This document shows, one piece after another, positions 572 through 30,938 of a DNA stretch of 32,000 bases. The notes below the pieces were generated by a model, which was given only the letters and a program-made list of their open reading frames with translations, was not told the DNA's origin and did not search any database. Origin of the DNA: Saccharolobus solfataricus (lineage in GTDB: Archaea > Thermoproteota > Thermoprotei_A > Sulfolobales > Sulfolobaceae); NCBI RefSeq assembly GCF_900079115.1, contig NZ_LT549890.1, positions 180,001 to 212,000 on the forward strand, read 5' to 3'. A program made the translations under genes and the position numbers. Every line of letters starts with the position of its first letter. Position 1 is the first letter of the stretch.

Positions 572-1813
572 TCATCTTCTTAATTGCTCCTTTACTATAT
601 CCAATATCTTTCTCGCTATTACCGTCTTAAAATTCTTTGGTATTTTCCTTACATCACCATTCTTATCTATAACTATAACCTCATTATATTCAGACGAAAA
701 TCCTATATCCTTTCTTCTCACATTATTAGCTACGATTAAATCAAACCCGTGTCTCCTCATTTTGATTTTAGCTTTCTCAATCAGCTCTTCATCAGAATTT
801 ACAGTCTCTGCGGAAAAACCTACTAGCAATACATTATACTTCCTAATGTATTCAGAAATTTTCGGTGTTCTTTCTAATTCAACTTTAGGTATTTCTGTAT
901 GACTGTCTATTTTAGTGTCAGATTTATTTTTAAACTTGTAATCAGCAGGCGCTCCAGCTAAAATTACAACATTAAACTTACCATTTTCTATACTTTTTAC
1001 AACTTCATTTAGCATCTCCTCAGTTGTCTCTACATACACTATATCCTTAACATAAGGTTCTATCTTAGAACTTATAGGTCCACAAATAACTCTAACTTTA
1101 GCTCCTCTGAAATACGCCTCATTCGCAATAGATATACCCATAGTTCCGCTACTTGGATTTGAAATAAATCTAACAGAATCTAAATACTCACGTGTAGGCC
1201 CAGCAGTAGCTAATATATTAAACCCAGATAAGTCTTTCCCTCTTAAAACATATGAGGTTATTCTACTGGTTAAGTATTCTAACTTAGGATAGTGTGCTAA
1301 ATCTCCAACTATCTCTGGTTCTATTACCTCTACTCCTATCCTTTTTAACCTATCTGCTGCATCTGCAACTTGAGGTGAAATATACATTTGTAAATGCATT
1401 GAAGGAACTATAATTAAGGGCTTTTTCATCCCAACGAAATTCAGCGCAGTAGCCGTTATTGGTGTATCAGCTATTCCATAAGCTATCTTTACCATAGTAT
1501 TTGCAGTAGATGGAGCTACGATCATTACGTCATTGTCTTCTGCCAATGAAACATGCTCTAAGTCACCAGTAAGCTTAGTAACTACATTATTTCCAGTAGC
1601 CCACTTAAACATCTCTGGGGAAATTAGCTTGGCAGCGTCTTTACTTATAATGACACTCACTTCTGCACCGTTCCTCATTAAACTTCTGGCTAAATCTAAT
1701 GACTTATATATTGCGACGCTCCCAGTTACTGCTAATAGTATCTTCTTATCAGCTAGTTCATTACTTATGCTCCCAATTATCTTCTTTGAAGGATGCGTCA
1801 TGTATGTGTGCAT
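572..1813 (-). CDS. coaBC: bifunctional phosphopantothenoylcysteine decarboxylase / phosphopantothenate-cysteine ligase (CoaBC/Dfp flavoprotein)
   Basis: 413-aa ORF. The N-terminal flavoprotein domain (KKILLAVTGSVAIYKS...) is followed by a CoaB-like ligase domain (ATAGPTREYLDSVRFISNPSSGTMG). ATG at 1813; a second in-frame ATG at 1801 fits better with a TATA-like element at 1828-1837. Confidence 0.85.
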   Translation of the reverse strand: MHTYMTHPSKKIIGSISNELADKKILLAVTGSVAIYKSLDLARSLMRNGAEVSVIISKDAAKLISPEMFKWATGNNVVTKLTGDLEHVSLAEDNDVMIVAPSTANTMVKIAYGIADTPITATALNFVGMKKPLIIVPSMHLQMYISPQVADAADRLKRIGVEVIEPEIVGDLAHYPKLEYLTSRITSYVLRGKDLSGFNILATAGPTREYLDSVRFISNPSSGTMGISIANEAYFRGAKVRVICGPISSKIEPYVKDIVYVETTEEMLNEVVKSIENGKFNVVILAGAPADYKFKNKSDTKIDSHTEIPKVELERTPKISEYIRKYNVLLVGFSAETVNSDEELIEKAKIKMRRHGFDLIVANNVRRKDIGFSSEYNEVIVIDKNGDVRKIPKNFKTVIARKILDIVKEQLRR

Positions 1814-1845: not shown

Positions 1846-2349
1846 ATGGAGCTCGCTGAAAAAGATAAAGGAAGAGATTTCACACTAAGAAACGCAAGAA
1901 TGGATGATATAGACCAAATAATAAAAATAAATAGGCTAACATTACCTGAAAATTATCCATATTATTTTTTTGTTGAACACTTAAAGGAATATGGCCTAGC
2001 ATTTTTCGTAGCTATAGTTGATAATAGCGTAGTAGGATACATAATGCCTAGAATAGAATGGGGATTCAGCAACATTAAACAATTACCCTCGTTAGTCAGA
2101 AAAGGACATGTGGTTTCAATAGCAGTATTAGAAGAATATAGAAGAAAAGGAATAGCTACTACATTATTAGAAGCCTCGATGAAGAGCATGAAAAATGACT
2201 ATAATGCTGAGGAAATATATTTAGAAGTAAGAGTCAGTAATTATCCCGCAATAGCCCTATATGAGAAACTGAACTTTAAAAAAGTTAAAGTACTAAAAGG
2301 TTATTATGCTGATGGGGAAGACGCATATCTTATGGCAAGACCACTCTAG
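1846..2349 (+). CDS. ard1: GNAT N-alpha-acetyltransferase, Ard1/Naa10-type (167 aa)
   Basis: From ATG 1846: MELAEKDKGRDFTLRNARMDDIDQIIKINRLTLPENYPYYFF...VSIAVLEEYRRKGIATTLL...YYADGEDAYLMARPL. It has the acetyl-CoA motif RRKGIA typical of GNAT. Sequence and length match what I recall of the characterised S. solfataricus Ard1. The track ORF start at 1699 is an antisense run-on into coaBC. Confidence 0.85.
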   Translation: MELAEKDKGRDFTLRNARMDDIDQIIKINRLTLPENYPYYFFVEHLKEYGLAFFVAIVDNSVVGYIMPRIEWGFSNIKQLPSLVRKGHVVSIAVLEEYRRKGIATTLLEASMKSMKNDYNAEEIYLEVRVSNYPAIALYEKLNFKKVKVLKGYYADGEDAYLMARPL

Positions 2350-2836
2350 CCAGTTTTACTTCGCCTTGTTCGGGATAATATTCACCATAATACCCCATAC
2401 TGAAATTACCAATAGATATCACTCTGGTATTATTTATATAATACTCTTTCTGAACCTCGGAATGCGCATGCAAAAGAATCCTAGGCTGATTAGATAATAC
2501 CTTAGCTAGAACCTCTTGAGAACCAACTCTAACACCATTTATAATTCCAGTAATTGAGCCTTTCGGAGGATAGTGTGAAATAACGATATCTGTAGAGAAG
2601 TCTGAAGAGATATTTAAATACTTATTGAGATATTTACCAGTGCTCTTCAAGTATTTTAGTACTGAAACATCCTCCATATCCCCAGTTATACCTATAAACC
2701 CTCTTATAAACTGAGGACACTCTATATCCCCTAACCCCACGAAAAGATCAGCATCGAGCTCGTTTACAAAATTTATAAGATCTAAATTACACTGAAAACC
2801 CGCTATGAGGATTACCTTTCTTACCATACCACTCAT
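2330..2836 (-). CDS. metallophosphoesterase-fold protein (YfcE/MJ0936-like) with degenerate motif I
   Basis: 168 aa. Motifs GLGDIE (GD), ISHYPP (His) and LLHAHSE (HxH) fit the calcineurin-like phosphoesterase fold. The first motif reads ILIAGFQCN instead of xxDxHG. It overlaps the upstream CitG-like gene by 41-50 nt and converges on ard1 with a 20-nt overlap. Confidence 0.6.
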   Translation of the reverse strand: MSGMVRKVILIAGFQCNLDLINFVNELDADLFVGLGDIECPQFIRGFIGITGDMEDVSVLKYLKSTGKYLNKYLNISSDFSTDIVISHYPPKGSITGIINGVRVGSQEVLAKVLSNQPRILLHAHSEVQKEYYINNTRVISIGNFSMGYYGEYYPEQGEVKLARVVLP

Positions 2837-3683
2837 CTAGATAATATATAGCCAACGCTGAGGCTATAAGATCGGCTGTTGACCCTGGATTAAAATTGTT
2901 GTTAATCAGATACTTATTAAGCCATTCTAACTCATTAGAAGATGGGCAATCGCCAGAGAAAACTAACCTAGCAACCTTAGATGCTTCTAATGCAGCGTGA
3001 GCTCCATACTTCTTATAAATTAAAGTATCCGGGTAGTTTGAAAGTATGTATAAAAACGCTCTTTGCACATCTCTTTCAAGTCCACATAAACCTTCCTTTA
3101 TAACTTTATATGCAGCAAAAGTTATCGAATAATCATTAACCATATTAAGTGCTACTATATCATATTTCGATGAAAACTCCATAAGCGTAAAAAAATCAAT
3201 ATTCTCTATTTCTCTATAATCCATTGAACTTAATTTACCTAAATATTTCAAATTTAACTCCTTTAATGCATCGAGAAACCATCTAGTCTCGAGAGCTCCT
3301 AAACTCCTTAGAAGTTTAGCAGCCTTTTTCCTCAATTCAAAAACATTATTAATCTTAGCAGCCTCATATGCGAAGGGCGCAATTAAAAGATAAGTACCAA
3401 ACAACTGGTATTCGAATCCAAATTTATTAGAACGAGTTACCAATTCTACTAACGTATCATAAATTCTACTAATCCCTCTAAATCCCCTTATGCATAATTC
3501 TTTATAATACGTAGAAGAAATTAATGCACTTTTCACTATATCAATGTATTTCACATTTACAAGATCTTGGGATCTACTTGCATTACCGGGTTTAAAAATA
3601 TAAGATTCTATTATTGAGGCTTGAGATAAAATGTAAGAGACATCATTACAAAGGTCTAATAAACCCTCTAACATCTTTGTCAC
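2787..3683 (-). CDS. CitG/MdcB-family protein (ATP:dephospho-CoA triphosphoribosyl transferase homologue)
   Basis: 298 aa. The C-terminal NFNPGSTADLIASALAIYYL closely parallels the E. coli CitG C-terminus NLSPGGSADLLILTWFL as I remember it. An N-terminal KPG segment is also family-like. The track start is GTG (3683); an ATG lies at 3674. Confidence 0.7.
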   Translation of the reverse strand: MTKMLEGLLDLCNDVSYILSQASIIESYIFKPGNASRSQDLVNVKYIDIVKSALISSTYYKELCIRGFRGISRIYDTLVELVTRSNKFGFEYQLFGTYLLIAPFAYEAAKINNVFELRKKAAKLLRSLGALETRWFLDALKELNLKYLGKLSSMDYREIENIDFFTLMEFSSKYDIVALNMVNDYSITFAAYKVIKEGLCGLERDVQRAFLYILSNYPDTLIYKKYGAHAALEASKVARLVFSGDCPSSNELEWLNKYLINNNFNPGSTADLIASALAIYYLDEWYGKKGNPHSGFSV

Positions 3684-4545
3684 CGATAATTACAACGTTC
3701 TCCTTCTCACAGCTCATTAATAAACCCTCAACCTCAACTTGTCTCTTTCCAAATAAAGCTGATGAAAAAATACCCTCATAACTCACTATCTTAGAAACAT
3801 TATATTCATTATTATCTAAAACGTATGCAACAGAAGGATAAATTAAAGCTTCGTAATCCCCCGAAATATGAGCTTTAAATTTTACCTTACCTATTTTTTT
3901 ACAAATATCGTTACAATATCTCCAAGGTTTATCATCGGCAAAAAGTACAGAGATCTTTATACCCCTATATATCCCTCGTCTCCTATTATCATACAGTAAA
4001 CTTGAGAAATTTATACCGTAATTCTCATTAGCCTCGATAATCCATTCAGAATCTTTTTCAAATCCATCAAAAGATTCAATGAAATCTAATGCACTCTTAC
4101 GCCCATATATTATTATATCAATATCAGAATTGCTGTGATAATTACCTAGTAAAATAGATCCAGTAACACCTATATCGTTAACTCTTACATATTCTTCTAT
4201 AAAACTGATAAGAGCATAAATTATACTATCACTGACACTCTTCTTTAATATCTCTCGTAATCTTTCTTCAGGCTTTAAATGTCTAGAAATATTAGATAGA
4301 AGAACTATAGGAAAAGATGCATCATAGCAACTCTCAAAATTAAACCGTTGATTAATCTTGATTAGATTATGAACACCATACTTCTTAAATATCCTCTCAT
4401 ATCCATTCCAAATACCTTTGCCGGTATAAACATATTTTAAATAGGCAAAAACATAACCAGGGGGATTATAATTGGTTAAAACAGTATACACGTTACCCTC
4501 TTTATCAATTATAATGTCTCTATCCAAGAAATAATCTCGTCCCAT
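3646..4545 (-). CDS. predicted nucleotidyltransferase (DNA polymerase beta superfamily fold) with C-terminal beta-rich, possibly OB-like, domain
   Basis: 299 aa. The signature GVTGSILLGNYHSNSDIDIIIYG matches the G[SG]...D.D minimal NTase motif. ATG start at 4545 lies 37 nt inside the upstream gene. Confidence 0.55.
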   Translation of the reverse strand: MGRDYFLDRDIIIDKEGNVYTVLTNYNPPGYVFAYLKYVYTGKGIWNGYERIFKKYGVHNLIKINQRFNFESCYDASFPIVLLSNISRHLKPEERLREILKKSVSDSIIYALISFIEEYVRVNDIGVTGSILLGNYHSNSDIDIIIYGRKSALDFIESFDGFEKDSEWIIEANENYGINFSSLLYDNRRRGIYRGIKISVLFADDKPWRYCNDICKKIGKVKFKAHISGDYEALIYPSVAYVLDNNEYNVSKIVSYEGIFSSALFGKRQVEVEGLLMSCEKENVVIIGDKDVRGFIRPL

Positions 4546-5417
4546 TCTTTCAACCTCACAAACGAGATTGGAGTCCCACTACTATCCAACATACTAATAT
4601 AATGACGTAGAAGCCCACCAGAATACGCATTAGCGATAAATGCCGCACCGACTGCTGCTTCCTTAAACTTAAAATCATATTTCTTACCAATCTCCAAATA
4701 GTTCTTATTATATCCAGATACTATAATCGGCAACTTATACTTATCACTATACCATTCCACTATAATTCTGGTAAGCTCTAAATTCCTACCAACATTATAA
4801 ACAGTTGACTTATCTATCCTAGAATATTTATGAAGAAGATAAGCTATTTCTCCATCTAAACCAGATAAATAGGTTCCGCCATAACCATCAACTATCTTAC
4901 CGTTAATAACGATAACAATTGCAGTAAATCTTCTTCCCATTTCAACTAGAATAAAATTATCTAGTTTAAGATAAACCCTATAGAAAAATGTAGAAGCAAC
5001 CTTATCTGCAGTGCCCTTATCAATAACATTTACCTTCCTATCATTAGGTAGACTATTTAGTTCAATAACTGAGGGAATCGTAAAAGAATTATAAAAAGAC
5101 AAATATTGTTTTGAAGCTAGTAAGAAATCTCTTAAAGGGCCATGAGATAATGGATCTTTTAACGTAAGGATAAATATTTCTCGATTGTTAATATTTCTAA
5201 TATTGTAGAAAGGTAGACCATGACCAGAAGGCAAAGCCACTGCCATAGGTCTATAATCGGCTATTAGTTTGGCTAAAAATATAGAGCTTTTCTCTACTAG
5301 ATCTGTACATATTTCAAAATATTTGATCAAATTCCCTAGTTCATCAACAAAGGCGAAAGCATAAGTCTCACTACCTGGATCGATACCAACATAAATCATC
5401 AGTGGCTGCCTCGCCAT
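4509..5417 (-). CDS. ASKHA (acetate/sugar kinase-Hsp70-actin) fold protein, DUF1464-like (so-called predicted butyrate kinase family)
   Basis: 302 aa. The N-terminus MIYVGIDPGSETYAFAFVDELGN is the phosphate-1 motif of ASKHA ATPases. The in-frame ATG at 5399 (MIYVGID) lies ~26 nt from an A/T-rich element and may be the real, leaderless start. Confidence 0.5.
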   Translation of the reverse strand: MARQPLMIYVGIDPGSETYAFAFVDELGNLIKYFEICTDLVEKSSIFLAKLIADYRPMAVALPSGHGLPFYNIRNINNREIFILTLKDPLSHGPLRDFLLASKQYLSFYNSFTIPSVIELNSLPNDRKVNVIDKGTADKVASTFFYRVYLKLDNFILVEMGRRFTAIVIVINGKIVDGYGGTYLSGLDGEIAYLLHKYSRIDKSTVYNVGRNLELTRIIVEWYSDKYKLPIIVSGYNKNYLEIGKKYDFKFKEAAVGAAFIANAYSGGLLRHYISMLDSSGTPISFVRLKEWDEIISWIETL

Positions 5418-5579
5418 ATCATTATTTCAAAACGGCTTTTCGTCATCATCAAAATCAGATAGTACAACACAGATATATAAAGTATAGTATTCATTCTAAC
5501 TCCTTCCTCGCTTTAAAATCTTTCACCCTCATTCTTCATAAATATAATAAAGATATGTACAAGGTTCACAATTTAAATA

Positions 5580-24484: not shown

Positions 24485-26233
24485 TCACATCTGTTGGAAG
24501 GATTTGTAAGTGTTCTTATAGATCTCGGAATTCTCTAAGGTTGAAGCAATACGTTTATACTTTATAGCATCGCCCAATGAGTTCTCTCCATGTTCCTTAG
24601 TCCATTTATCAAGGGGTATTTGATATTCTCTTAATACTTTATCTCTATACAAATCGTTTAATACATTATAGGTACAGAATGGAATTACTCTACCATCCGG
24701 AACAACATAGTGAATATCACATCTCATCACTCTTTGTACATCGTAATTATATAAGTCCATGAAGTGCATACTTCCTAAGAATAATGTTCTATAGTGCCAC
24801 TCTCCAAGTGCTTCGTAGTTATGATGAATTATTATGTTATAGAGCATCTTATATACATCAAAGTCCTTAGGTCCTTGCTCTTTATCTATGAACTTCCTTA
24901 TACTATACAATACTTTACTTGCAACCCATACCTTATTAGCGCCTTCCCTTAACTCTTCTTCTTTCTCTTTAAGATATTCTAGCAAACCTTCTAAATCAAT
25001 AAACTTCGAAATTGGTATGAAGTGAGGTTCGTGATTCCTCCATTCTACATATACATATGTTCCAGCTCCACAAGAAGGATGATTAGCCATTTCGAATTGC
25101 TCCTTACCAGTTAAAGCTTCAACTAGCCTTGAGAAGACAACAGAAGTACCTATTGGATACCAACTATCCTTAGTTATCTCACCATCAGTTTGTTCTTCTA
25201 TGTTCTTTATAACTTCGGGTATCGTGATTCTGAATTTAGCTCTCATATTCCTTTTCATCATTCCGGTTAAGCTCACTGGCTGGAAGTTTACTGATCTAAC
25301 TACATCCATATTATATGCTGCAAACTTAACTATATTCCCTAGATCATTGTCATTAACTGTCTTTATTACAGTAGGAACTAGCACAACACTTGTCATTCCT
25401 GCTCTTCTGAATACTTCTAACGTGTAGGGAATTTCCCAATGATTCTTAGGATTAGTTTTTCTAGTTGTACCGTCAAAACTCATGTATACAGTATTTACTC
25501 CAGCCTCTCTAAGAGCTCTAGCGTATTTAATTGCCTTATCGGGATCTTCTAAATACAGTTTAGCAAAAGTGCCTCCCCAACTATTTAATTGAATATGTTT
25601 TACACCATTTTCTCTAAGCATCTTTATTATTTCTATTATGTCCTCCCTTAATGTAGGCTCTCCTCCAGTCACTTGGATAACAAGCGTAATATCTTGTTTC
25701 TTTAGTTGATCTACCATAAACTTAATTTGCTCTAACGTAGGTTCATAAACATATCCTGCCTTTTCAGCATAGAAGAAACAATACCAACAAGATAAGTCAC
25801 ATCTATTTGTTATCACTAAATTAACTAATGCTGAGTGTTGATGATGCATCGGGCATAATCCACAGTTATAAGGGCAGGGAGATTTCAAGTCAACATAGGG
25901 GACTTTAGGTCCTTTTCCTTCATACTCCCAATAGTCAAACTTATAGTATAGACTAGAATCTGCGTAATATAAGTCCTCAAATTCTCCGTGTTCTGGGCAT
26001 ATTTTTCTTATGAACAATTTCCCTTCTTTTTCAAATATAGTAGCTGGTAATAGCCTATAGCATGCTGGACATAGTGAATGAGTTACTCTAACTAATTTCT
26101 CATCTTTAGCTAATGTTGGTAAGGGTCCTCCTATATTAATTTCTTTATCTCCAAATTTGACTACTCCTTCCTCGAAACTTGACGGTGCAGGCAAAAGTCT
26201 GGAATGCCTTTCAGTATTTACTATCTGAGCCAT
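24485..26233 (-). CDS. radical SAM enzyme with N-terminal Cys-rich domains; candidate tetraether lipid synthase (Tes / GDGT-MAS, MJ0619 family)
   Basis: 582 aa. It has the CxxxCxxC radical SAM motif ([12 protein letters not shown]), an N-terminal SLCPACY...CPEHG rubredoxin-like site and a [14 protein letters not shown] auxiliary-cluster motif. The architecture matches my recollection of the MJ0619/Tes family. The radical SAM call is firm; the specific function is inferred. Confidence 0.8.
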
Positions 26234-26294: not shown

Positions 26295-27266
26295 TTAATA
26301 CCAACCGATGAAATTATCCCATCCAGTATTTTTAATCACGGTATTTTTATATGTTATTAATCTATTTTCATGAATAACTTGTCCGATAATTAATGGATTA
26401 AACGCTAGATATTGAAGTTCAGCTAGCATTTCCTTCACTGGGGAATTTTTGTCTATAATAAGTAAAGGCAAAAACTCTTCTCCAGCGTATTTTAAAATAT
26501 CGAGTTCAGTTAAATTTAAGCGAAGCTTTAACGAGTTGAAGACATTTTTATCTATTGGAATTTCGGTAATATTTATCCCTAAGTTGAAATTATCAACTAT
26601 TTTATATAAAGATACCATAAGACCGTCACTAATATCAGTAGAATATTTAATGAACTTGCAGTATTTTTTCATAAAAAATAGTAATGACTTTTTAACGATA
26701 GGATGTTTTACTTTAAGTAACGATTCTGGCAAGATTTGTATATTAAAATTGTTTATATAAGAAATAAAAACATTAGTGGTATAACCAATATAGTCACCAA
26801 TTACTAAAAGATCACCATCATCAATAACTTTATCACTAATATCACATAAAACTTCTCCTTCTACAAAAACATCAACCCAGCCATTAGAATCGGAATCATT
26901 TAAATCTCCTCCTACATACCTTCCTCCATAATAATGAATAGCATCAGATATACCGCCAATAAGTTCCTCTGCTTTATTCACATCGAAATCAGGAGGTAAG
27001 CCCAATGAAATTAAATAGAATTCAGGTTTAACTCCCTTCGCTATAATGTCACTGGTAGAGGCTGAAATTGCCTTCCATCCAATATCGTAGAGTGACATAA
27101 ATGGAAAAGCGTACGACAGCTTAAATCCATCCACCTTATATCCTCTTTTTTCATTGATGAATACATCATCTAATAATTTAATGTCCATATAATTCTTAAT
27201 ATATCTCTTAATAAACTCGTGCTCGCCTATGTTTTTTAGTTTCACAAAATACAAGTTACTTATCAA
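26295..27266 (-). CDS. thiL: thiamine-monophosphate kinase (AIR synthase-related, ThiL-like)
   Basis: The motifs IGEHEFIKRY (compare GEFxLI), ...GGDLN..., ...STDISDGL... and ...AGEEFLPLLII (compare GGEDYELLF) follow the ThiL pattern. The track start is TTG 27266; GTG 27245 is an alternative. Confidence 0.7.
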   Translation of the reverse strand: MISNLYFVKLKNIGEHEFIKRYIKNYMDIKLLDDVFINEKRGYKVDGFKLSYAFPFMSLYDIGWKAISASTSDIIAKGVKPEFYLISLGLPPDFDVNKAEELIGGISDAIHYYGGRYVGGDLNDSDSNGWVDVFVEGEVLCDISDKVIDDGDLLVIGDYIGYTTNVFISYINNFNIQILPESLLKVKHPIVKKSLLFFMKKYCKFIKYSTDISDGLMVSLYKIVDNFNLGINITEIPIDKNVFNSLKLRLNLTELDILKYAGEEFLPLLIIDKNSPVKEMLAELQYLAFNPLIIGQVIHENRLITYKNTVIKNTGWDNFIGWY

Positions 27267-27445: not shown

Positions 27446-28819
27446 TCATCTATCTTGAGCTTCTCGTATTTCTGAACCTTTGATTACGCCTTTTGCATAG
27501 CTAATAGCTCTCTCTATTAATTTATCATAGGAACCCAAGTAGTTTTTAGGATTAAGTACGTTCTCAAGTTCTTGCTTAGAGAAATAACTTAAAATTAAAC
27601 TATCCTCTAGGCAAACCTCTAATAACGTTTTTCCAGTTTGTCTTACTTTTGACGTCAGTTTGTTAACGTATTGATGAGCTTCATGCCTTTTCATGCCCTT
27701 TAAGGTTAAGTTTATCATCAGACTTTCTGCCATTATTTGTCCTTTAGTTAAGTTCAAATTCTTTTCAATATTCTCGAAGTTAACCCTTAAATTCCTCAAA
27801 AGACTTATCATACTATCTAATATTTCGTCAATAACTAGAAATTCATGTGATATTATTATCCTCTCTGACGAACTGTTAGTCAGATCTCTTTCGTGCCATA
27901 ATGGAATATTTTCTAGTGACGCTACGACAAGAGAGCGTAAAACTTTTGCTAAACCCCCAATCTTTTCTGACGTGACTGGATTTTCCTTCTGAGGCATAGT
28001 ACTACTTCCTACACGACCTTCTACGCCTTCACTTATTTCATTTATTTCCGGTCTCATTAGTTCCCTAACTTCTAATGCGAATCGATCACATTGAGATGCC
28101 AAAATTGCAAGATCAGAAGTTAATTCTGCAAATGCGTCTCGTGGAGCAACTTGAGTTGAAATCTCATGAGGTCTTAATCCTAAAAATTTCATAACATTCT
28201 CTTCTATTTCTAACCCTATATTGCCCCAAGCTGCCATCGTGCCAACTGCACCTGCCATTTTACCTTTTACTATTCTTTTCTCAACCTCATTTAACCTCTC
28301 TAGTGATCTAGAAAATTCATAGATATAATTTGCAATTTTAAAGCCTAATGTTATAGGCAATGCATGCTGCCCATGAGTTCTTCCTACCATTGCTAAATCT
28401 TTATACTTAATTGCTAAACTAACCATCATTTCCAATATTTCTACTACTTTTGTCTTTACTAATCTTATTGCGTCTCTAAATACTAACGCATAAGCTGTAT
28501 CTACAATATCATAACTTGTTGCCCCAAAATGAACGTATCTTCCAGAATCTCCACTTCTTTCTGCCATTAAGACTACCATAGCCATTACATCATGACCAAT
28601 TTTTGATTCAAGTTCATCTACTTCCTCTGGTCTTATTGTTAATGAAGCTTTCTCAACTTTTTGAACGTCTTCCTCTTTTACTAAACCATATTTGGTTAAT
28701 GCTTTTAATAACGCTATTTCTACTTGAATTCTCCTTTTCAAGATTTCTTCTCTACTGAAAAACTTTCTCATCTCATTACTACCGTATCTCCATTCTAAAG
28801 GACATATACTATCCTCCAT
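27446..28819 (-). CDS. purB: adenylosuccinate lyase
   Basis: From ATG 28819: [21 protein letters not shown]... It has the fumarate-lyase signature [11 protein letters not shown]. The track start at 28870 is an upstream GTG extension. Confidence 0.93.
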
Positions 28820-28844
28820 GGCTAATTGTAAAGTATGTTCAACA

Positions 28845-28852
28845 TTTATTAA
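28845..28852. promoter_or_regulatory. single A/T element TTTATTAA, candidate shared TATA box for divergent purB and purP
   Basis: The spacer between ATG 28819 (minus) and ATG 28875 (plus) is 55 bp. The element centre is ~29 nt from one ATG and ~26 nt from the other. No SD is visible for either gene. Confidence 0.4.
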
Positions 28853-28874
28853 CTTATACTGTAATCTCACAACA

Positions 28875-29888
28875 ATGATAATCGCAACAATCGGTAGTCA
28901 TTCTGCATTACAGATCTTACATGGAGCCAAGAAGGAAGGTTTTCAAACTATGGTAATAACTGATAATAAAAGAGAAAATTTCTACAAAAATTTTAGTTTT
29001 ATTGATAACATTTATGCATATGCTAGCCTAGATGAAGCAGTATCTATAATTAATGGTATTAAGGATTATGGTATATTAATCCCACATGGAAGTTTAGTAG
29101 AATACCTAGGCAAGGAAAGAGTAGATAAAATTGAGACAAAAATTTTTGGAAACAAGAAAATATTCGAGTGGGAAGCAGATCAGAAAAAGAAAATGGAACT
29201 ACTTAGAAAGTCAAACATAAAGATTCCAGAGATATTTGAAAGACCAGAAGATGTGGATAGATTAGTAATCGTAAAGCTTAACGGAGCTAAAGGGGGTAAG
29301 GGATACTTCCTAGCTAGGAATAAAAGTGAAGTAAAAGAAGGAATTCAAAAGCTCATTGAGAGTAAAATGATAAGAGACGAAAATGAAGTAATAATCCAAG
29401 AGTATGTCGTAGGAGTTCCGATGTATTTTCAATTTTTCTATAGTGACATTATAAATAGAACAGAAATCTTCGGAATAGATATAAGATACGAAACTAACAT
29501 AGATGGACTTAGAAGGCTTCCTTTTGAGTATATGAAAGAACTTAAGATAAACCCTACGTTTGTAGTTGTTGGCAATATTCCAGCTGTAGCTAGAGAGAGC
29601 TTACTACCAGTTGCTTTAGAGTACGCTAATAACTTCGTTAGAACTACTAAGGAATTAGTACCTCCAGGGATGATAGGACCATTTTGTTTAGAGTCAATAA
29701 TAACTGATAATTCAGATATAGTTGTTTTCGAGTTCTCTGGAAGAATAGTTGCTGGAACTAACTTATACGTAAATGGGAGTCCATATAGTTGGCTTTACTG
29801 GGATGAGCCCATGAGTATAGGAAGAAGGATCGCAAGAGAAATCAGAGTCGCAAACGAAAAAGATAAGTTAAGCCTCGTGGTGAGCTAA
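28875..29888 (+). CDS. purP: 5-formaminoimidazole-4-carboxamide ribonucleotide (FAICAR) synthetase, PurP family (ATP-grasp), copy 1
   Basis: From ATG 28875: [23 protein letters not shown]..., the characteristic PurP N-terminus. It also has ...[15 protein letters not shown]...[11 protein letters not shown]... Confidence 0.85.
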
Positions 29889-30938
29889 ATGAATGTTAAG
29901 ATAGCTGCATTAGCTAGTCATTCTGCACTTGACGTCTTCGATGGAGCTAAAGATGAAGGTTTTCAAACAATAGGGCTGTGTAAAAAGGGAAGAGAAAGAC
30001 CTTATTTGGAATTTAAAGCAATCATGGATAAATGCATAATTTTGGAAGATTTCAAAGAAATAATCTCAGATAAGGTACAAAGTATACTACTCAGCGAAAA
30101 TGCCATAATTGTTCCTAATAGGAGCTTAGCGGTTTATGTAGGTTATGATGGAATAGAAAAAATGAAAACGAAAGTCTTCGGCAATAGATATATGTTACGA
30201 TGGGAAGAAAGGATAGGTGAGAAAAATTATTATAAAATACTAAATGAGGCGAAGATCTCTATACCCAAATTATTCAAACCAGAAGAGATTGATAGACCAG
30301 TAATAGTTAAACTACCTGAGGCCAAAAGGAAAGTTGAGAGAGGATTCTTTTTCGCTGTAAACAAGGAAGATTTCGAAGCTAAACTCAACGAATTATTGAG
30401 AAATAACGTAATAGATAATGAAGGTTTAAAAAATATGGTAATAGAGGAATTTGTGTTTGGAGCTCACTTTAATCTTAACTACTTCTACAGCCCAATATTT
30501 AATAGATTAGAATTAATAAGCGTGGATAGAAGAATTCAAAGTGACTGGGATAGCTTATATAGATTGCCTGCTGACATTCAAATAAAATTAGGTAGGATAC
30601 CAAAACTAATAGAGGTTGGCCATGAGCCAGTAACAATAAGAGAAAGCTTGTTGGAAAAAGTCTTTGAGATAGGATATAGGTTTGTAGACGCCACACAAAA
30701 ACTTGAGCCCCCTGGGATAATAGGACCCTTTACTCTACAAGTTATGGTGACCCCAGATTTGGATCTTGTCGTATACGATGTTGCCCCAAGAATTGGAGGT
30801 GGTACAAATGTATATATGGGAACTGGGAGTCAATACTCTAAATTTTACTTCGGAAAGCCAATAAGTTTAGGAAGAAGAATAGCATTAGAGATAAAGCATG
30901 CTATAATAAATAATCTTACCGAAAAAATACTAACTTAA
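29889..30938 (+). CDS. PurP-family paralogue, copy 2 (function not assignable from sequence)
   Basis: 349 aa; [27 protein letters not shown]..., ...[15 protein letters not shown]... and [11 protein letters not shown] are collinear with copy 1 but strongly diverged. It starts at the nucleotide after the copy 1 stop. Confidence 0.8.

Follow-up and report, generated by a model that had tools for sequence, protein, structure and literature searches.

Four overlapping genes form a conserved operon

This study concerns four genes on the minus strand of a 32,000-nucleotide stretch of the Saccharolobus solfataricus genome (contig NZ_LT549890.1, positions 180,001 to 212,000), which is referred to here as the window and is numbered from its first letter. 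An earlier reading of the same letters, the original prediction, had described them as an operon for an uncharacterised cofactor pathway, encoding an ASKHA-fold protein, a nucleotidyltransferase (NT), a CitG-like protein and a metallophosphoesterase, and had favoured a prosthetic group derived from dephospho-CoA. Calling of open reading frames (ORFs) returned exactly the coordinates and overlaps given there, with successive genes sharing 37 nt, 29 or 38 nt, and 41 or 50 nt. The four genes and a possible promoter element are as follows.

4509 to 5417, minus strand: first gene, ASKHA-fold protein of the DUF1464 family, 302 aa (296 aa, as in the database, if translation starts at 5399)
3646 to 4545, minus strand: second gene, Pol-beta-type nucleotidyltransferase (NT), 299 aa
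2787 to 3683, minus strand: third gene, CitG-like protein (PF01874), 298 aa from a GTG or 295 aa from the ATG at 3674
2330 to 2836, minus strand: fourth gene, small divergent calcineurin-like (metallophosphoesterase-like) protein, 168 aa (alternative ATG at 2827)
5474 to 5481, minus strand: candidate TATA-like element TTTATATA, 57-64 nt upstream of the ATG at 5417, read by eye and of low confidence

Two Shine-Dalgarno-like motifs lie inside the operon, tgaggt at 8-13 nt before the NT start codon (ATG 4545), within the DUF1464 gene, and ggtga at 5-9 nt before ATG 3674, within the NT gene. Because ggtga stands just upstream of it, ATG 3674 is favoured as the start of the CitG-like gene, which gives the 29-nt overlap. 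Database entries for Saccharolobus solfataricus match both the CitG-like and the DUF1464 protein at 100% identity, the latter under the name 'DUF1464 family protein'.

A profile scan with the CitG-like protein over one genome per GTDB species recovered 80 loci, and the members from Sulfolobales and related Thermoprotei, together with one locus recovered separately, make up a set of 11. The order DUF1464, NT, CitG-like, phosphoesterase-like is kept in all 11, and the ends overlap throughout with the exception of a 25-nt gap between DUF1464 and NT in one locus (L013), at protein identities that fall as low as ~35% (35-60% across genera). Since the order recurs in 11/11 loci, with overlapping ends apart from the one gap, the arrangement is not due to chance; the quartet is a conserved operon and, as had been proposed, is probably translationally coupled. 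Among the loci recovered, the exact quartet is restricted to Sulfolobales and related Thermoprotei, and these loci have no neighbouring mch or fae genes.

Family assignments of the four proteins

The third gene product is a genuine member of the CitG family. It matches PF01874 at 155.9 bits against a cut-off of 27 (E 2e-45, residues 18-280 of 298), and the match takes in the NFNPGSTADL motif on which the family call had originally been based. Across the Sulfolobales alignment no variation is seen at K28-P29-G30-N31 or at N262-P-G-x-T-A-D268. The models that define the known enzymes of the family gave scores far below their cut-offs, however, with 18.8 bits against 272.3 for the CitG equivalog TIGR03125, 12.2 against 282.35 for the MdcB equivalog TIGR03132 and 14.1 against 280 for NF002315, and in the equivalog alignments only the C-terminal 70-80 residues of the protein align. 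The nearest PDB entry, and the only structure with detectable sequence similarity, is 3h9p (E 2e-7 over residues 91-285). In a neighbour-joining tree the Sulfolobales, NT-linked and DUF447-linked CitG-like proteins fall into taxon-coherent clades, and two loci (L089 and L092) have CitG-like genes with both NT and DUF447 neighbours, which is consistent with a single archaeal CitG-like family whose neighbours vary.

The second gene product matches PF01909 (NTP_transf_2) at 30 bits (E 6e-7). Scanned against Pfam at E <=0.1, it gave matches to NTP_transf_2 and Polbeta alone and none to CitX or MdcG, and the NCBIfam scan returned nothing. Its structural model (pLDDT 93.4) consists of an N-terminal beta domain, a Pol-beta core and a C-terminal oligonucleotide/oligosaccharide-binding (OB) fold. 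The core carries the motif G126, G129-S130, S140-D141-x-D143, of which G129-S130 and D141-x-D143 do not vary across 53 family members or among any of the paralogues. When the whole-chain model was compared with the PDB using Foldseek, no match was obtained at E <=1e-3; the core is similar to poly(A)/poly(U) polymerases, and the C-terminus to OB folds of the RPA32/RMI2 type. Profile searching found 935 relatives, and a hidden Markov model (HMM) search found 1,700 representative clusters at 50% identity. The named members come only from Sulfolobales, Bathyarchaeota and Nezhaarchaeota, in addition to the Helarchaeota paralogues of locus L002.

As first suggested, the first gene product belongs to DUF1464 (PF07318, 352 bits, E 4e-105, full-length). 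The phosphate-1 motif D13-x-G15 near its N-terminus is invariant in the alignment. The AlphaFold model (pLDDT 90.5) has the two-domain ASKHA fold and is nearest to ROK sugar kinases, butyrate kinase, type III pantothenate kinase and EutJ (Foldseek E ~1e-8); its 210 PDB matches at E <=1e-3 are ASKHA kinases. Judging by this model, the protein is probably a small-molecule kinase or ATPase. A role as an Fe-S activator is disfavoured because the family alignment contains no invariant cysteines. An NCBIfam scan of the S. solfataricus protein gave zero matches, and PDB sequence searches with NT and DUF1464, using single sequences as well as profiles, returned nothing useful.

The description of the fourth protein as a metallophosphoesterase holds in part. 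Its C-terminal half matches PF14582 (Metallophos_3; 37.7 bits, residues 51-164 only), but the five motifs of calcineurin-like enzymes (DxH, GD, GNH(D/E), H, GH) are not all present: the DxH of motif I is absent and its position is held by C16, and where motif III should read GNH the protein has G-(E/D)-x-(E/D). The GD, the H and H123-x-H125 are retained, and C16, D37, C40, H88, H123 and H125 are invariant in the alignment. An NCBIfam scan gave zero matches, and no homologue was found in the ~160 non-Sulfolobales loci examined.

Relatives of these proteins lie among pterin and one-carbon genes

Outside Sulfolobales, the CitG-like, NT and DUF1464 families repeatedly co-localise with methanopterin biosynthesis genes and with tetrahydromethanopterin (H4MPT)/methanofuran genes in several archaeal lineages. 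Lack of co-conservation beyond close relatives had been named as a finding that would refute the original prediction, and on this the picture is mixed: the exact quartet is specific to Sulfolobales, but the NT/CitG-like pair and combinations of DUF1464, NT and pterin genes are widespread. The pairing of a CitG homologue with an NT, a central element of the original prediction, recurs in Bathyarchaeota-like and other archaeal loci; in 2/3 looked-up loci there is a second NT paralogue, with a CitG-like gene directly after it.

A metagenome scan anchored on non-Sulfolobales NTs yielded 80 loci, among which CitG-like genes occur in 23 and Ftr in 31-32, with Mch, FwdA/B/C/D, Mtd and an FrhB-like gene in several. 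When only the 27 loci that reach 12 kb or more are considered, a CitG-like gene is present in 13, Ftr, Mch, FwdA or Mtd in 15, and one or the other in 21, although these counts overstate the number of independent events because the NT-anchored loci are phylogenetically related. The typical order is CitG-like, an energy-coupling factor (ECF)-type S-component, three to four NTs, a UbiX-like flavoprotein, Ftr, FwdDBAC and Mch, and in Bathyarchaeota-like loci the CitG-like gene and up to four NT paralogues adjoin Ftr, Fwd and Mch. The catalytic G-S...S-D-x-D is kept in up to four NT paralogues per metagenomic locus. Four tandem paralogues stand beside an ECF-type S-component and a CitG-like gene in the Bathyarchaeota-like loci L103, L114, L117, L123, L134 and L140 (for example L114:6417-11047), all with intact catalytic motifs; the OB fold could serve to assemble them into hetero-oligomers, or they could carry out several transfers.

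Pterin biosynthesis genes themselves are found in the tightest of these clusters. The metagenomic locus L089 groups NT, NT, CitG-like, DUF447, an MptE-like gene, a DmrX-like flavoprotein (TIGR02700, 195 bits), DUF1464, MptA (TIGR00294, 218 bits), a PTPS-like gene, an RFAP-synthase family gene (TIGR00144, 145 bits against 113.5) and MptH (TIGR00284, 361 bits against 257), and is by its predicted gene content an almost complete cluster for the biosynthesis of methanopterin. MptH and MptA are flanked by DUF1464 and two NT paralogues in L002, a Helarchaeota locus, and in the related L172; L170 has the order DUF1464, flavoprotein, MptH, followed by MptA and NT; and in L169 DUF1464 is near an MptE-like gene. 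Co-localisation of DUF1464 with one-carbon (C1) genes extends to bacterial-looking contigs (L171 and L173), where Fae, (Mtd), DUF1464 and an ATP-grasp gene precede Fhc/Mch. DUF1464 homologues thus adjoin MptH/MptA/MptE-like or Fae/Mtd/Fhc genes in L002, L089, L169, L170, L171 and L173.

The DUF1464 protein of L173 (L173:8001-9560), encoded within its Fae-Mtd-DUF1464-ATP-grasp island, is 519 aa long and has an extra C-terminal region of ~160 aa. Exceptions to the pterin context were also found. In a Methanoperedens locus an MfnA-like decarboxylase lies beside DUF1464, and in a bacterial contig type that is widespread and in one source bears the name Omnitrophota (L167:7045-9053 and L168:7045-9053) a radical-SAM/SPASM gene lies upstream of DUF1464 and overlaps it, amid transposase, NucS and SSB genes and with no pterin genes in the surroundings. 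From this gene content, the latter looks like a different use of the family.

The other ~70 GTDB CitG-like loci (L014-L083) come from Methanothrix, Methanoperedens, ANME-1, Methanocellales and similar lineages. No NT, DUF1464 or phosphoesterase-like gene was found within 10 kb in these euryarchaeal loci. A DUF447 gene overlaps the CitG-like stop codon in 48/70 of them (e.g. L083:3863-4447), and methanogenesis marker 9 (TIGR03277) is immediately upstream in 23/70.

A possible role in assembly of the sulfopterin side chain

The folate analogue that S. solfataricus uses has the characteristics of methanopterin, and the serine hydroxymethyltransferase of Sulfolobales prefers it (PMC3261824, PMC3697235). 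From the family assignments and gene contexts above, we put at roughly one in two the probability that the operon encodes assembly of the side chain of sulfopterin, the methanopterin-type C1 carrier of Sulfolobales. The label of an uncharacterised cofactor pathway was a fair one. In methanopterin the side chain has the form polyol-O-alpha-ribofuranosyl-5-phosphodiester-hydroxyglutarate, the second alcohol of the phosphodiester being 2-hydroxyglutarate, and members of the CitG family transfer a triphosphoribosyl group from ATP, after which CitX or MdcG acts on the product of CitG or MdcB to form a phosphodiester. It is because the linkage in the methanopterin side chain formally matches the product of CitG and CitX on acyl carrier protein (ACP) that a two-step reaction of the CitG-like protein and NT is proposed.

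According to this model, the CitG-like protein would transfer an alpha-(5-triphospho)ribosyl group from ATP to a hydroxyl of a pterin-arylamine-polyol intermediate, with release of adenine. NT would then have a second alcohol attack the alpha-phosphate of the triphosphate, yielding a phosphodiester and pyrophosphate. The DUF1464 ASKHA protein might supply an ATP-dependent phosphorylation or activation, and the degenerate phosphoesterase might remove a phosphate, for example the 5'-phosphate of a ribitol intermediate before ribosylation. The data establish the structure of the genes, their families, the conserved operon and the gene contexts of the three shared families; we infer all of the substrates, the order of the steps, and the parts played by the ASKHA and phosphoesterase-like proteins.

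Several observations weigh against this proposal. The link to pterins rests on relatives at 25-35% identity, and the supporting neighbour counts come from related metagenomic lineages that are not independent events. No pterin gene adjoins the operon in the 11 Sulfolobales loci, the sole exception being a PTPS-like ORF 3.7 kb away in L011, and no classical methanogen is among the named NT family matches. The mechanism presumes a ribosyl-phosphate unit in the sulfopterin side chain, and published biochemistry of methanopterin synthesis reportedly proposed phosphoribosyl pyrophosphate rather than ATP as the ribosyl donor. A single phosphodiester step explains neither the OB fold of NT nor the presence of four paralogues, and the active site of the phosphoesterase-like protein is degenerate. 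Moreover, because DUF447 is linked with MfnF, and Ftr and Fwd use methanofuran, gene context cannot separate methanopterin from methanofuran.

This last point bears on the alternative that we place first, while still regarding it as unlikely, namely that the module serves some other C1-pathway or unknown cofactor, methanofuran-like or F420-related, rather than a pterin. The euryarchaeal CitG-like gene overlaps DUF447, which we take to be the family of methylotroph Orf9. Orf9 has been reported as a homologue of the methanofuran enzyme MfnF (PMC8141765). NT paralogues adjoin Ftr and Fwd, the MfnA-like decarboxylase stands beside DUF1464 in Methanoperedens, CofH/CofG are present in L170, and the S-component next to the CitG-like gene is of a vitamin type. 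Methanofuran has no ribosyl-phosphate unit, however, and the tightest clusters (L089, L002 and L170) hold the pterin-branch genes MptG, MptH and MptA. In addition, Sulfolobales keep the module even though, to our knowledge, they neither use methanofuran nor have enzymes that depend on it. The dephospho-CoA route of the original prediction, in which the CitG-like protein would make triphosphoribosyl-dephospho-CoA and NT would attach the prosthetic group to a protein acceptor, is less probable again. It accounts for a CitG Pfam domain next to a Pol-beta NT, and coaBC lies within ~1.5 kb of the operon in 9/11 Sulfolobales loci, but the protein misses the CitG/MdcB equivalog cut-offs by >250 bits, NT matches neither CitX nor MdcG, and the relatives cluster with pterin and C1 genes rather than with CoA or ACP genes. 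As had been noted at the outset, there is no citrate lyase, malonate decarboxylase or ACP gene among the annotated ORFs of the window, and none is among the recurrent neighbours in ~170 related loci. The nearness of coaBC, which had been offered as a link, was rejected as a functional connection since it is confined to Sulfolobales, where coaBC forms a separate transcription unit past a convergent gene.

It is formally conceivable that the four genes are functionally unrelated and are held together by synteny within one order, given that no locus outside Sulfolobales and related Thermoprotei has the exact quartet. We consider this very improbable: overlapping frames and internal Shine-Dalgarno motifs are conserved across genera at 35-60% identity, and in unrelated lineages, with differing gene orders, NT again adjoins a CitG-like gene and again clusters with DUF1464. 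To an RNA-directed system we assign the least credence of all. Here the CitG-like protein would add a 2'-O-ribosyl phosphate to RNA or tRNA, with the OB-fold NT and the ASKHA protein acting on nucleic acid, and such a system could be read into the C-terminal OB fold and polymerase-like core of NT, the position of the S. solfataricus operon amid tRNA, S10 and EF-1alpha genes, and the TiaS and Kae1/Bud32 genes a few kb away in L002 and L170. It is the pterin and C1 genes that are conserved as neighbours, however, and not those for translation, and the OB folds that matched (RPA32, RMI2, Stn1) serve in heterodimerisation too, as would suit the occurrence of multiple NT paralogues.

Neighbouring genes and other features of the window

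Several other genes of the window are of note.

1846 to 2349, plus strand: convergent GNAT acetyltransferase (TIGR01575 rimI, 95 bits against a cut-off of 86)
572 to 1813, minus strand: coaBC (TIGR00521, 333 bits)
28818 to 29888 and 29889 to 30938, plus strand: tandem PurP-like genes (DUF1246 plus DUF1297)

The GNAT gene, presumably that of the characterised Sulfolobus N-terminal acetyltransferase Ard1, overlaps the 3' end of the phosphoesterase-like gene by 20 nt and stands between the operon and coaBC. Its convergent arrangement is retained in most Sulfolobales loci, and is echoed in Methanotrichaceae by a RimI-like GNAT gene ~1.3 kb downstream on the opposite strand. Further neighbours in S. 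solfataricus are tRNA-Asp and tRNA-Ser, followed by the S10 and EF-1alpha genes.

In other Sulfolobales a conserved protein of ~165-190 aa that matches no Pfam family is always encoded directly upstream of DUF1464, in either of two orientations.

L003:7507-8004, L011:7695-8234, L013:7699-8196: upstream protein, co-directional with the operon
L004:7590-8141, with equivalents in L005 and L007-L010: upstream protein, divergent from the operon

By eye the N-terminus of this protein resembles a ribbon-helix-helix, and it may be a dedicated regulator. The gene is absent from the S. solfataricus window, where tRNA genes occupy its place.

A radical-SAM gene at 24485-26233 (minus strand), whose Pfam 'HMPTM zinc ribbon' had made it a candidate pterin methylase, was rejected in that role; it encodes the tetraether lipid (glycerol dialkyl glycerol tetraether, GDGT) synthase Tes (NF045702, 722.6 bits against a cut-off of 450). 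Directly upstream of it is a gene related to aminoimidazole ribonucleotide (AIR) synthase (26295-27266, minus strand), which scores best against ThiL, with 92 bits where 184 are required. Near NT in L084 lies a gene of the same AIRS family that also stays below the cut-off, and its counterpart in L085 is a bona fide HypE (378 bits); the presence of AIRS-family neighbours near both the Tes and NT genes is probably coincidental. The tandem PurP-like genes adjoin that for adenylosuccinate lyase (27446-28870). PurP is a family of formate-dependent, folate-independent aminoimidazole carboxamide ribonucleotide (AICAR) formyltransferases, and duplicate purP genes are on record in Sulfolobus (PMC3261824).

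Implications and comparison with known systems

Methanopterin is the C1 carrier of methanogens, of anaerobic methane and alkane oxidisers, of many other archaea and of methylotrophic bacteria. We know of no genes assigned to the late steps of its side-chain assembly, nor did the literature that we found assign any, and the pathway to the Sulfolobus analogue likewise has no genes assigned to it. A more sweeping proposal than that for the S. solfataricus operon, and one that we advance only tentatively and with distinctly lower expectation, is that CitG-like proteins, COG1665-type NTs and DUF1464 are the missing enzymes that attach alpha-ribosyl-5-phosphate and a phosphodiester-linked terminal group to methanopterin-type cofactors in general, with the Sulfolobales operon as the most compact form, making sulfopterin. 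The prosthetic-group chemistry of CitG and CitX would in that case have been turned to a small molecule, and the two to four NT paralogues of Bathyarchaeota, Helarchaeota and Nezhaarchaeota would point to chemically undescribed variants of the side chain. If the S. solfataricus operon encodes the late steps of side-chain assembly, a role would be at hand for DUF1464 and for ~1,700 uncharacterised nucleotidyltransferase clusters, inhibitors of methanogenesis could gain new targets, and its genes would provide four testable candidates in a genetically tractable aerobic archaeon. Should the explanation prove wrong, the conserved pairing of CitG-like protein and NT would still mark a ribosyl-phosphate transfer system in archaea.

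In the literature available, no paper was found that assigns a reaction to the CitG-like, NT or DUF1464 families. A CitG-like protein, Orf7, is already known as the product of an H4MPT-linked gene, and for DUF1464 and the NT family nothing was found in the literature searched. Orf7 of methylotrophs, encoded in the mch-orf5-orf7 island, is named 'H4MPT-linked C1 transfer pathway protein' (PMC3615186), and in a Methylomonas genome the gene located after mch and one for an alpha-L-glutamate ligase bears the annotation triphosphoribosyl-dephospho-CoA synthase (PMC11533326); we read the latter as the orf7 equivalent. These are CitG-family members among H4MPT genes, a context shared by euryarchaeal and Bathyarchaeota-like CitG-like relatives, and the likeness is one of context and annotation. 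The Sulfolobales gene differs in that it lies in an operon with DUF1464, NT and the phosphoesterase-like gene and has neither mch nor fae as a neighbour. In the literature found, no reaction was assigned to Orf7.

The methylotroph protein Orf20 is presumably of the ASKHA fold as well. Its gene, in the orf19-orf20-afpA island (PMC3615186), stands beside those for an ATP-grasp ligase and a flavoprotein of the AfpA/DmrX type, and DUF1464 holds the same positions in L170, L171 and L173. Since DUF1464 has no NCBIfam match, it is a different ASKHA family from Orf20 and the resemblance is positional. The slot directly downstream of the CitG-like gene is filled by DUF447 in the 48/70 euryarchaeal loci and in L089 and by the phosphoesterase-like gene in Sulfolobales. 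The two proteins have no sequence relationship, and their functional equivalence is speculation.

Among structures, 3h9p, a structural genomics entry of uncharacterised function that is deposited as a 'putative triphosphoribosyl-dephospho-CoA synthase', is weakly similar to the CitG-like protein. The closest biochemical parallel is provided by the bacterial pairs CitG/MdcB and CitX/MdcG. The S. solfataricus locus likewise combines a PF01874 protein bearing KPGN and NPGSTAD motifs with an adjacent transferase of the Pol-beta superfamily, and the two-step logic predicted here, an ATP-derived alpha-triphosphoribosyl transfer followed by formation of a phosphodiester and release of pyrophosphate, would be that of CitG and CitX. 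Unlike CitG and MdcB, however, the archaeal protein scores far below the equivalog cut-offs, and NT, with its beta domain, core and OB fold, has no family match to CitX or MdcG. Finally, the locus is devoid of ACP, lyase and decarboxylase genes, its relatives are found in a pterin and C1 context, and the proposed acceptor of the ribosyl phosphate is a small molecule rather than a protein serine.

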